Shown here: in pieces, positions 22,323 to 23,720 of the stretch | How the letters are laid out: each line of letters starts with the position of its first letter | Numbering within the stretch: position 1 is the stretch's first letter | NCBI RefSeq assembly: GCF_001677475.2 | Contig: NZ_CP015229.1 | Direction: 5' to 3' (one strand) | Length of the DNA stretch: 64,000 nt | Origin: Escherichia coli | GTDB taxonomy: Bacteria; Pseudomonadota; Gammaproteobacteria; Enterobacterales; Enterobacteriaceae | Translations under genes and position numbers: made by a program | Notes under the pieces: generated by a model | What the model was told of the DNA's origin: nothing | What the model saw: only the letters and a program-made list of their open reading frames with translations | Databases searched by the model: none

Positions 22323-23369
22323 ATGAGTATGGTTGATTTATATTCGCCTACACAGCTTGTGCAGGTGGCTAATGCTGAAGATGTGCAAAAAAAATTAAAT
22401 GCGTTGTTTACCAGTTTGTTTTTCACTCGCTCGGTAATGTTTGAATCGAGAGACATTATTCTTGATACGATCGACGATCCAAATATCCCGATCGCGGCGT
22501 TTTGCTCTCCTATGGTGGGCAGTAAAGTTTCACGAGATGAGGGATACGAATCAAAAACAATTCGCCCTGGCTATATGAAACCGAAAAGCAGTATTGATCC
22601 AAATAAGTTAGCTGTGCGCCCTGCTGGTGTATCACCTGAGCAATACAATGCTTTTGGGGCGCGTAATATTAAAGTTAAACAGGCGATTGTAAATCAGGCT
22701 AAAGCTATTCGTGCACGTATTGAATGGCTTGCTGTTCAGGCAATCACAACGGGGAAAAATATCATTGAGGGCGATGGTATTGAACGTTATGAGCTGGACT
22801 GGAATATAAAACCACAAAATATCATCACTCAGTCTGGCGGTACTGAGTGGTCAGGTAAGGATAAAGAAACTTTTGATCCAAATGATGATATTGAGAGCTA
22901 CGCAGAATTTAGTGAGGGCGTCACTAATATCATCATTATGGGTGGTAATGTATGGAAGAAATACCGTTCATTCAGAGCGATAAAAGAGGCTTTGGATACC
23001 CGTCGTGGTTCTAATTCCGAACTGGAAACGGCCCTTAAAGACCTTGGTGATTCGGTGAGTTTTAAAGGGTATATGGGCGATGTTGCGATTGTTGTTTACA
23101 GCGGGCGTTATACCGACGAGGACGGAACAGAAAAACATTTCCTTGATCCTGATTTGATGGTGCTTGGCAATACGGCTCTTCAGGGGATTGTCGCCTATGG
23201 CGGTATTCAGGATCCGGAGCTAATCCGAATGGGGCTGACTAAAGCCGAACTTGCACCGAAAAACTATATTGTGCCTGGTGATCCGGCTATTGAATATGTG
23301 CAGACACATTCAGCACCACAGCCAATACCGGCCCGCATCAATCGTTTTGTTACCGTTCGCATTGGCTAA
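22323..23369 (+). CDS. major capsid protein, phage lambda gpE family
   Basis: N-terminus MSMVDLYSPTQL (lambda E: MSMYTTAQLL); long block ...NIITQSGGTEWSGKDKETFDPNDDIESYA...FRAIKEALDTRRGSNSELETALKDLG...GDVAIVVYSG...MVLGNTA... closely matches lambda E as recalled; true start may be ATG 22329. Confidence 0.85.
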   Translation: MSMVDLYSPTQLVQVANAEDVQKKLNALFTSLFFTRSVMFESRDIILDTIDDPNIPIAAFCSPMVGSKVSRDEGYESKTIRPGYMKPKSSIDPNKLAVRPAGVSPEQYNAFGARNIKVKQAIVNQAKAIRARIEWLAVQAITTGKNIIEGDGIERYELDWNIKPQNIITQSGGTEWSGKDKETFDPNDDIESYAEFSEGVTNIIIMGGNVWKKYRSFRAIKEALDTRRGSNSELETALKDLGDSVSFKGYMGDVAIVVYSGRYTDEDGTEKHFLDPDLMVLGNTALQGIVAYGGIQDPELIRMGLTKAELAPKNYIVPGDPAIEYVQTHSAPQPIPARINRFVTVRIG

Positions 23370-23378
23370 GGGGGAGCA

Positions 23379-23720
23379 ATGGCTACTCATTACACTGAAC
23401 TCATGTCTGGCACTGAAGCACTGGTTACTACGCTGGGGATATTTTCAGCCAATAAAGGGGTAATACCTGCGTTTACGCCACTGATGCAGGAAGATGCAAC
23501 TGGTGCGCTAGTGGTATGGGATGGAACGAGCGCAGGCAAAGCGGTTTATGTTTCCGCTGTACAAATCGACACAGCGAAAAAAACACAGGCACAGGTTTAT
23601 AAGACAGGTGTTTTAAATGTTGATGCTCTGAACTGGCCTGAGTCTGTAAAAGAACTGTCGGCAAAGGTTGCCGCGTTTGTTGGCTCAGGTATTTCTGTTC
23701 AGCCGCTGGCTCGTGTGTAA
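23379..23720 (+). CDS. head decoration protein, phage lambda gpD family
   Basis: 113 aa; ...FTPLMQEDATGALVVWDGTSAGKAV...YKTGVLNVDALNWPES...FVGSGISV matches lambda D (...[22 protein letters not shown]...YKSGTFRYEDVLWPEA...FAGTAISI). Confidence 0.8.
   Translation: MATHYTELMSGTEALVTTLGIFSANKGVIPAFTPLMQEDATGALVVWDGTSAGKAVYVSAVQIDTAKKTQAQVYKTGVLNVDALNWPESVKELSAKVAAFVGSGISVQPLARV

Follow-up and report, generated by a model that had tools for sequence, protein, structure and literature searches.

Homologues of the lambda capsid proteins gpE and gpD in a phage satellite island of Escherichia coli

Why should a phage satellite of 11 kb carry genes for a major capsid protein and a decoration protein when it has no gene for a portal, protease, scaffold or large terminase? 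The question is raised by a chromosomal island of Escherichia coli, lying within a stretch of 64,000 nucleotides (NCBI RefSeq assembly GCF_001677475.2, contig NZ_CP015229.1) that was analysed as a whole and is referred to here as the window. Two neighbouring genes of the island encode E', a homologue of lambda gpE, and D', a homologue of lambda gpD. An earlier note on this DNA had recognised both proteins and the satellite, and had proposed that they either redirect the helper phage to a smaller capsid or act as a dominant-negative decoy, each being a distinct mechanism of hijacking or interference. The satellite, the true E and D homologues, and the absence of head and packaging genes other than that for a small terminase all stand; the two mechanisms are not supported. 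Based on its gene content, the element is almost certainly a classical Gram-negative cos-type phage-inducible chromosomal island (PICI) that carries gpE and gpD homologues of a satellite lineage. The finding of such a pair is not new, as E' and D' in satellites of this kind have been published since 2018, and the mechanism can therefore not be called distinct on that ground. What is added here is that the pair forms a satellite-only lineage with reversed gene order, is under purifying selection, has a prevalence of about 7 %, and is joined in some relatives by a gpC-like protease.

The capsid and decoration proteins

E' is a full member of the gpE family, based on a complete profile match (Table 1) and the solved gpE fold. 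In phmmer searches, it matches lambda gpE (PDB 7vi9) at 8.7e-78 over residues 7-347 of 348, with 42 % identity, and its top match in PDB is 3bqw, a capsid protein from an E. coli CFT073 prophage with a crystal structure (1.1e-121). The AlphaFold model of E' (pLDDT 79, pTM 0.80) is likewise closest in fold to 3bqw, with a template modelling (TM) score of 0.86, and has TM scores of 0.81-0.85 to lambda gpE, supporting the homology along the length of the protein that the earlier note had read from the translation. The alignment of E' with gpE runs from end to end with small insertions and deletions only, and 59 positions are near-invariant (at least 95 %) across the satellite and phage clades. 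The stretches least like phage E are the first 60 residues, residues 101-160, and the C-terminus. Translation from the ATG at 22323 gives the sequence MSMVDLY, which parallels MSMYTT of lambda E; an alternative start at 22329 (346 aa), six bases past an AAGAGG ribosome-binding site, is the RefSeq choice in relatives.

The gene for D' begins 9 nt past the E' stop codon. Against PDB, D' matches the phage 21 protein SHP at 2.8e-16 and lambda gpD at 1.3e-12, family membership here being taken from sequence and not from predicted fold. In lambda, the N-terminus of gpD forms a sheet with the E-loop of gpE and the N-arm of the neighbouring subunit, in the expanded shell only, at the three-fold sites (PMC5701804). 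That a cement protein is always inherited together with E' is most simply understood if E' lattices actually form and expand.

Compared with lambda gpE and gpD and phage 21 SHP, E' and D' share the same Pfam families, fold (for D' by sequence), and full-length alignment, but identity to the lambda proteins is about 42 % and 40 %, the gene order is reversed, and GC content at third codon positions (GC3) is 0.38 rather than 0.69. Nor are there adjoining W, B, C, Nu3, FI or FII genes. When lambda Nu1, A, W, B, C, Nu3, D, E, FI, and FII were used as tblastn queries against the whole window, the only matches were to Nu1 (24332-24814), D', and E'. Genes for a portal, protease, scaffold or large terminase were thus not found there with the lambda head proteins as queries, in keeping with the earlier note, and tblastn with lambda Nu3 found no Nu3-like scaffold in the island. 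PHROG annotation of the queried island open reading frames (ORFs) shows no further head, tail or lysis gene.

A satellite-only lineage and its relatives

Among 50,697 phage genome records, no phage E is more than 60 % identical to E', the best being lambda at 42 %, and no phage D in these records is more than 60 % identical to D', the best again being 42 %. A search of 5.8 billion proteins gives a bimodal set of E' homologues, with one group at 52-100 % identity (343-352 aa) and the other, of lambda type, at 38-44 % (341-342 aa). In a neighbour-joining tree, as in clustering, a single branch of length 0.32 divides satellite E' from phage E, in 50 of 50 bootstraps. Every member of the 52-100 % group for which the context was examined is in a satellite with integrase, alpA, and primase genes and without its own portal or large terminase (TerL). 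The hosts are E. coli, Edwardsiella, Lelliottia, Kluyvera, Kosakonia, and Superficieibacter, and homologues are also present in assemblies of sequencing runs and metagenomes. A search of genome contigs for related loci gave three loci only, and the wider context comes from contigs encoding homologues; the loci are referred to here by number (L001 and so on). In all 15 of the satellite loci examined for gene order, E' precedes D', whereas D precedes E in lambda and in the helper prophages of L003 and L007.

Three relatives are inserted in lambda-like prophages: L003 (Kosakonia) in gene E, L006 (E. coli) in A, and that of Edwardsiella tarda (L007/L008) in B. In these, the satellite E' and D' genes are beside the helper's own D and E, to which they are only 42-47 % identical; in L007 the difference is about 58 %. 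They are further cases of the published helper-embedded arrangement and show that the helpers are lambda-like phages of the E/D type. Recent capture from a helper phage is ruled out by the lack of any phage record above 60 % identity, the reversed order, and the distinctness from adjacent helper genes in L007 and L003.

Evidence of selection is strong. The ratio of non-synonymous to synonymous substitution (dN/dS) for E' between the window and E. coli APEC17 (L001) is 0.06, indicating strong purifying selection. In deeper E' pairs, synonymous sites are saturated and dN is 0.09-0.45; E' values involving L004 are invalid, as an upstream stop codon was included in the slice. The dN/dS values for D' are 0.07-0.2. 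The subclade of the window is present in 394 of 5,426 complete E. coli genomes (about 7 %) at a coverage of at least 80 %. In RefSeq it already bears the annotation 'major capsid protein | head decoration protein', and the element and its proteins can be found in public databases for hundreds of genomes; no NCBIfam model matches E', D', AlpA2 (the product of the next gene) or TerS. E' and D' are therefore a functional, satellite-specific lineage, and are neither recent phage captures nor decaying remnants. That they are an inert remnant of a degraded lambdoid prophage is close to impossible: the adjoining ssb gene is broken, indicating some decay in this copy, but both ORFs are intact, and the dN/dS values, the prevalence in E. 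coli, the tree split, and the spread of the lineage across many genera of Enterobacterales effectively refute it.

The divergence of E' correlates with that of D' across loci and is not followed by that of the integrase and replication genes; E' and D', together with AlpA2 in the subclade of the window, therefore move as a cassette. The GC3 of the cassette is 0.38-0.39, against 0.56 for the island primase. AlpA2 begins 11 nt past D' and accompanies E' and D' in all four loci tested for it, being 69-72 % identical beside the pair in Superficieibacter, Kosakonia, and Kluyvera.

Several relatives carry further shell genes. L009 (Lelliottia, 11409-12752) and L015 (11418-12659), both next to fis/dusB, have an added gpC-like S49 prohead protease with a Nu3-like region, 50-54 % identical to lambda C. 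One of the two also has a gene with a Phage_HCP domain; both lack a portal and large terminase, yet have fuller head modules. Relatives of the EcCICFT073 type encode a 141-aa protein weakly similar to the C-terminus of gpC/Nu3 (PHROG 1e-11 and 1.6e-8; tblastn 1e-5), a likeness confirmed neither by BLASTP with lambda Nu3 (no significant match) nor by Pfam (no match). In E. coli strains TK3896 and UTAK-5, sibling islands at the same tRNA-Pro site as that of the window (L012, 8294-10207; L016, 8094-10007) have about 93 % nucleotide identity over a shared two-thirds, with the same set of int, primase, ssb, and terS genes; E', D', and AlpA2 are replaced by one gene for a 637-aa fusion of a ClpP-like prohead protease with a major capsid protein (MCP; NCBIfam NF045540, 1.6e-273). 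This unrelated fusion indicates that the slot between ssb and cos accepts unrelated capsid modules. The additions in relatives and the fusion in the siblings suggest that the carriage of shell components is selected for.

One homologue, P0043 (342 aa, on a 4.4-kb ENA contig), is 98-100 % identical to lambda E over roughly its first two-thirds, to about alignment column 240, and identical to E' of the window in its C-terminal third. Either helper and satellite have truly recombined here, or the protein is a chimera of metagenome assembly.

The island and its packaging

The features of the island are listed in Table 1. It is inserted at tRNA-Pro between yejM (13705-15465) and a yejO-type autotransporter gene (26713-29304, minus strand). 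The 3' end of the tRNA gene is repeated, which delimits the integrated element, and the spacing of the two att repeats gives an island length of 10,995 bp, in agreement with the 11 kb put forward earlier.

Table 1. Coordinates of the island features, as positions in the window
Feature	Position	Strand	Evidence or remark
tRNA-Pro (GGG), integration target	15540..15616	+	ARAGORN; Rfam tRNA 54.9 bits; 3' end is attL core
attL direct repeat AATCCTCTCGTGCCGACCAAATCGCCCA	15598..15625		28 nt, 86 % identical to copy at 26593
Tyrosine integrase, 413 aa from ATG 15825 (mechanical ORF from GTG 15807)	15825..17066	+	phrog_1 1.9e-71
AlpA-family regulator, 68 aa, PICI activator/excisionase type	17566..17772	+	phrog_66, phrog_2790 'excisionase and transcriptional regulator'
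Primase/replication protein, 601 aa	19410..21215	+	phrog_864 DNA primase 4e-190
Replication origin, direct and inverted copies of CTGTTCACC / GGTGAACAG	21225..21455		Read from sequence
SSB-like gene (single-stranded DNA-binding protein), disrupted	21745..22113	+	phrog_44 2.1e-27; aligned to intact 140-aa APEC17 gene
E', homologue of lambda major capsid protein gpE, 348 aa	22323..23369	+	Pfam Phage_cap_E (PF03864) 3.4e-41, residues 14-345
D', homologue of lambda gpD / phage 21 SHP, 113 aa	23379..23720	+	Pfam HDPD (PF02924) 2.7e-15
Second AlpA-like winged-helix protein (AlpA2), 127 aa	23732..24115	+	phrog_2790 1.8e-48; PDB 8c3t AlpA 1.6e-10
cos site	24137..24225	+	Aligned to circularised lambda cos
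Nu1-type small terminase TerS, 180 aa from ATG 24317	24317..24859	+	Pfam Phage_Nu1 2e-22; phrog_57 6e-53
Conserved 93-aa protein downstream of terS	24933..25214	+	phrog_1561 1.3e-55
PerC-family transcriptional activator	25681..26052	+	Pfam PerC 1.1e-22
attR direct repeat AATACTCTCGTGCCGACCAAAAATCCCA	26593..26620		Second copy of tRNA-Pro 3' end

The arrangement is that of a classical Gram-negative PICI: a size within 10-20 kb, a specific att site, an integrase gene at the left end, alpA co-oriented downstream of it, a primase gene of its own followed by an iteron origin, and a packaging function (cos and terS) after the origin, without tail or lysis genes and with most head genes absent. It is not a capsid-forming PICI (cf-PICI), as there is no lambda A, B, C or W homologue in the window and no such PHROG match among the island ORFs. 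Neither is it P4-like: the island ORFs have no PHROG match of psu, sid, delta or epsilon type (dedicated Psu/Sid profiles were not used), and the cos is of lambda type. Nor is it embedded in a helper, the flanks of the tRNA-Pro site between yejM and yejO being core E. coli genes.

The cf-PICI EcCIEDL933 has an HK97-fold capsid protein of its own, a small terminase, and the int-alpA-primase backbone, as does the island; unlike the island, cf-PICIs encode a protease, portal, head-tail connectors, HNH protein, and large terminase, and make their own small capsids without blocking the helper (bioRxiv 10.1101/2022.09.08.507074). The capsid family also differs, that of the island being of lambda E type with D-type cement. 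The helper-embedded PICI 11capE (PMC10111431) has the same size of 11 kb, the same gene order, and an E-family capsid gene of its own, and the island differs from such PICIs in its tRNA-Pro site and in its integrase, whose identity to the integrases of the embedded relatives is only about 23-38 %. According to Mageeney et al. (2023; PMC10111431), 21 of the 29 reference Gram-negative PICIs have a gene for a major capsid protein, which transfer does not require; capsid genes are recognised as the commonest late gene of Gram-negative PICIs.

Packaging is evidently of the cos type. The lambda cosN sequence GGGCGGCGACCT is present exactly at 24172-24183, the sole zero-mismatch match in the window, and the alignment with lambda takes in the cosQ side and cosN and continues for about 40 nt more before it diverges at the R-site region of cosB. 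TerS aligns with lambda Nu1 over residues 3-180 with 36.5 % identity (tblastn). Rpp-type packaging was rejected, none of the three ORFs around cos matching RppC in PDB; as a positive control, a 146-aa protein of L006 matches 6hlk at 3.2e-34.

Lambda packages approximately 78-105 % of its 48.5-kb genome. Four island units, at 43,980 bp, equal 91 % of the lambda genome length, and the tetramer is the only island multimer within this range. The suggestion that an 11-kb genome is unfit for a lambda head, and hence that a smaller shell is called for, therefore does not follow.

Two observations were made on the sequence around cos. An exact 17-mer, ATGAATAAAAAGGGAAA, is present twice in the island, at 21417-21433 (at the end of the origin iterons) and at 24252-24268 (about 70 nt past cosN, in the position of cosB). 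APEC17 (L001) and the sibling L012, which has the protease-MCP fusion, have retained the two copies, and the 17-mer may be a shared protein-binding site tying replication to packaging. Some sibling islands have a variant cosN, GGGCGGCAGACG, with a right half unlike that of lambda and another upstream flank (L012, about 10270-10281; L016; L017, about 9537-9548), whatever the type of their capsid cassette. L012, with the protease-MCP fusion and the variant cosN, had given the idea that the capsid cassette is swapped with the TerL-read half of cos as a helper-matched unit; this was rejected, since L017 has E', D', and AlpA2 with the variant cosN and flanks.

Of the remaining genes, the integrase is 90 % identical to the one annotated at this site in APEC17, and AlpA has 100 % identical orthologues with Pfam Phage_AlpA in L005. 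AlpA is followed by a short minus-strand YlcI/YnfO-like ORF and then several small ORFs. The primase is 99 % identical to an APEC17 protein annotated 'primase-like DNA-binding domain-containing protein', and the origin directly downstream of its gene is where the PICI ori has been described (PMC6092414). An 81-aa ORF lies between the origin and the ssb-like gene. In the latter, a 56-bp deletion relative to APEC17 shifts the frame, so that the ORF stops at 22044 after 99 aa and the conserved ...EPYGDNIPF tail is no longer read. This points either to partial decay of this satellite copy or to an ssb that the satellite can do without. The 93-aa protein downstream of terS is 71-92 % identical in E. 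coli satellite loci L001, L005, and L006 and 44 % in Superficieibacter (L002). PerC genes have been noted in PICIs (PMC11773190) and are accessory genes typical of those of Gram-negative bacteria.

The 278-bp gap between ssb and E' is AT-rich and contains a strong hairpin at 22129-22157 with an 11-bp stem (ATGCCGGAAAA...TTTTCCGGCAT). It scores as a terminator on the minus strand only, where no gene ends, and may be a regulatory element of the E'-D' operon. A promoter scan found a weak sigma-70-like site at 22261-22288, upstream of E', although matches in the region are no commoner than in shuffled sequence. Shortly before attR, among the accessory genes, about 13 units of a (GGCT)n tetranucleotide microsatellite occupy 26156-26217; they could serve phase variation by strand slippage, or be a repeat on which assembly tends to err. 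An Rfam scan of the island found the tRNA only, the remaining matches being chance ones in the origin repeats. Outside the island, the flanks of the window are core E. coli genes (yej, rcs, nap, ccm, narP) found in nearly all complete genomes. At 1-13700 and 40000-64000, their best identity among the 5,426 complete E. coli genomes is only 97.8-98.5 %, and the host strain is therefore apparently from a lineage scarce among complete genomes.

The role of E' and D'

Experiments have been published on EcCICFT073, a Gram-negative PICI of the same architecture in which c1499 and c1500 are the homologues of E' and D' (PMC6092414, 2018). It shares with the island the order of int, alpA, primase, and ori followed by E' (c1499; 3bqw) and D' (c1500), a lambda-type cosN with divergent cosB, a PerC-type accessory gene, a size of 10-15 kb, and lambda-like cos helpers, and its E' is in the same satellite clade. 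It differs in integration site and in having RppA and the 141-aa Nu3-like protein where the island has a full-length Nu1-type TerS and the second AlpA-like gene; E' of the window is about 57 % identical to its E' (P0023, equated with c1499/3bqw on length and score). With lambda as helper, all DNA packaged from EcCICFT073 was phage-sized, in full-size heads; deletion of c1499 or c1500 did not restore lambda plaques and did not affect transfer by resident prophages (PMC6092414). An island with c1499::cat was still transferred, at about 10^3 per ml by lambda and about 10^6 per ml by phi80. When genes downstream of the EcCICFT073 origin were expressed singly, c1503 (rppA) alone inhibited lambda (PMC6739421, 2019); c1499 and c1500 were probably among these clones, judging by position, as the text of that paper does not list them. 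Deletion of c1503, with E' and D' kept, fully restored lambda plaques, with titres nearly at the level without the island (PMC6739421). A literature search found no later paper giving E' and D' a function.

Combining these data with the gene content of the island, the following cycle can be proposed. A lambda-like cos helper phage would induce the island, which would replicate into concatemers; its own TerS would bind the divergent cosB and recruit the large terminase of the helper, with cutting presumably at cosN; and about four units (44 kb) would be packed into a normal T=7 head with the portal and tail of the helper. With the portal, scaffold, and protease of the helper, E' would assemble into shells of the lambda type, either by itself or together with helper E, and the expanded lattice would be cemented by D'. 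The gain would be an added supply of heads, or the use of helpers in which E and D are limiting, disrupted or defective, and with a healthy helper providing E and D, as in EcCICFT073, the pair would not be needed. A cos-type PICI with E' and D' as accessory structural parts is the best explanation overall, and has about an even chance of being right; that they act by structural supply as such is something we infer with less than even confidence. More tentatively still, E' and D', with the gpC/Nu3-like genes of relatives, could be the core of a satellite-owned shell assembled on a stolen portal, scaffold, protease, terminase motor, and tail.

Several points weigh against a structural contribution. 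The loss of c1499 or c1500 without effect means that any contribution of the pair is redundant under laboratory conditions. The island has neither scaffold nor protease, and E' would need to function with proteins of a helper whose own E, their usual partner, has only about 42 % identity to it. Sibling islands that share TerS and the cos variant carry either E' and D' or the protease-MCP fusion, which argues, as far as these sibling sequences go, against strict matching to a helper head. For E. coli islands of the TerS type no helper is known, resident prophages having failed to mobilise them (PMC6092414), and tblastn with lambda head proteins found no helper head region in the window.

A special case of this structural explanation is that E' and D' matter only with helpers in which the capsid genes are interrupted or defective, including cryptic lambdoid prophages. 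It accounts for their dispensability with intact helpers, and L003, L006, and L007 are in helper genes E, A, and B, E being the most frequent target of helper-embedded PICIs, for which a backup role has been suggested (PMC10111431). However, the island of the window is at a tRNA gene and not within a helper, E' cannot complement an insertion in A or B, and in the embedded case E' is about 58 % diverged from the adjacent helper E, and thus no simple backup copy. So narrow a role is rather unlikely.

Capsid-size redirection, the first of the mechanisms in the earlier note, would have E' and D' build a T=3 or T=4 shell on the helper portal and scaffold, holding one or two units and excluding the helper genome. 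For SaPIbov5 Ccm and E', we know of no sequence-level relationship past the common fold. Like E', Ccm is a homologue of the helper MCP in a cos-packaged satellite that lacks the rest of the head module. It is reported to give small capsids and to block the helper, and PmCI172 possibly gives small capsids (both as cited in PMC6092414). The strong divergence of E' from phage E in its first 60 residues and in residues 101-160 could be read in the same direction, and the published experiments covered another subclade and not a TerS-type island. Yet the tested homologue of E' neither made small capsids nor blocked the helper; EcCICFT073, with the same E'/D' lineage, packaged phage-sized DNA only, and its transfer was not reduced by the loss of E'. 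As four island units fit the T=7 lambda head, a small shell is also unneeded, and redirection is improbable.

A non-structural role, in which E' and D' are bait, decoy or trigger for capsid-sensing host defences, or are regulators, is also given little probability. Strong selection on a pair with no transfer or interference phenotype would fit such a role, as would a slot that can take an unrelated type of MCP with the same terS and cos variant. On the other side, the full-length HK97-type fold, the cognate cement protein, and the protease and scaffold additions of relatives point to assembly, and no defence gene is evident in the PHROG annotation of neighbouring ORFs (the PADLOC library was not run).

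The second mechanism of the earlier note, a dominant-negative decoy in which E' and D' co-assemble with helper E and D and poison helper heads, is very improbable. Classical PICIs do interfere with their helpers, and 42 % identity with a kept fold makes aberrant co-assembly conceivable, but deletion of c1499 or c1500 gave no relief of lambda interference, rppA alone of the singly expressed genes was inhibitory, and its deletion restored lambda with E' and D' present. A poison would also hurt the satellite, which needs heads, and would leave the constant co-inheritance of a cognate D' unexplained. Since the E' of the tested relative is only 57 % identical and its packaging is of Rpp and not TerS type, these experiments disfavour both redirection and a decoy in the island by analogy, short of formal disproof.

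There is thus a puzzle, in that a capsid and cement pair is under strong purifying selection in a satellite-only lineage and yet has no known phenotype. A satellite-owned shell, if it exists, may serve only particular natural helpers or defective prophages, which would explain the null phenotypes with lambda and phi80, and would be an intermediate between satellites that steal the whole capsid and cf-PICIs, which steal tails only. With its classical E-amber and D-amber mutants, lambda offers a direct test of what the pair does. The role of E' and D' would show whether a graded series links capsid-stealing and capsid-forming satellites, and whether satellites can revive defective prophages as helpers.

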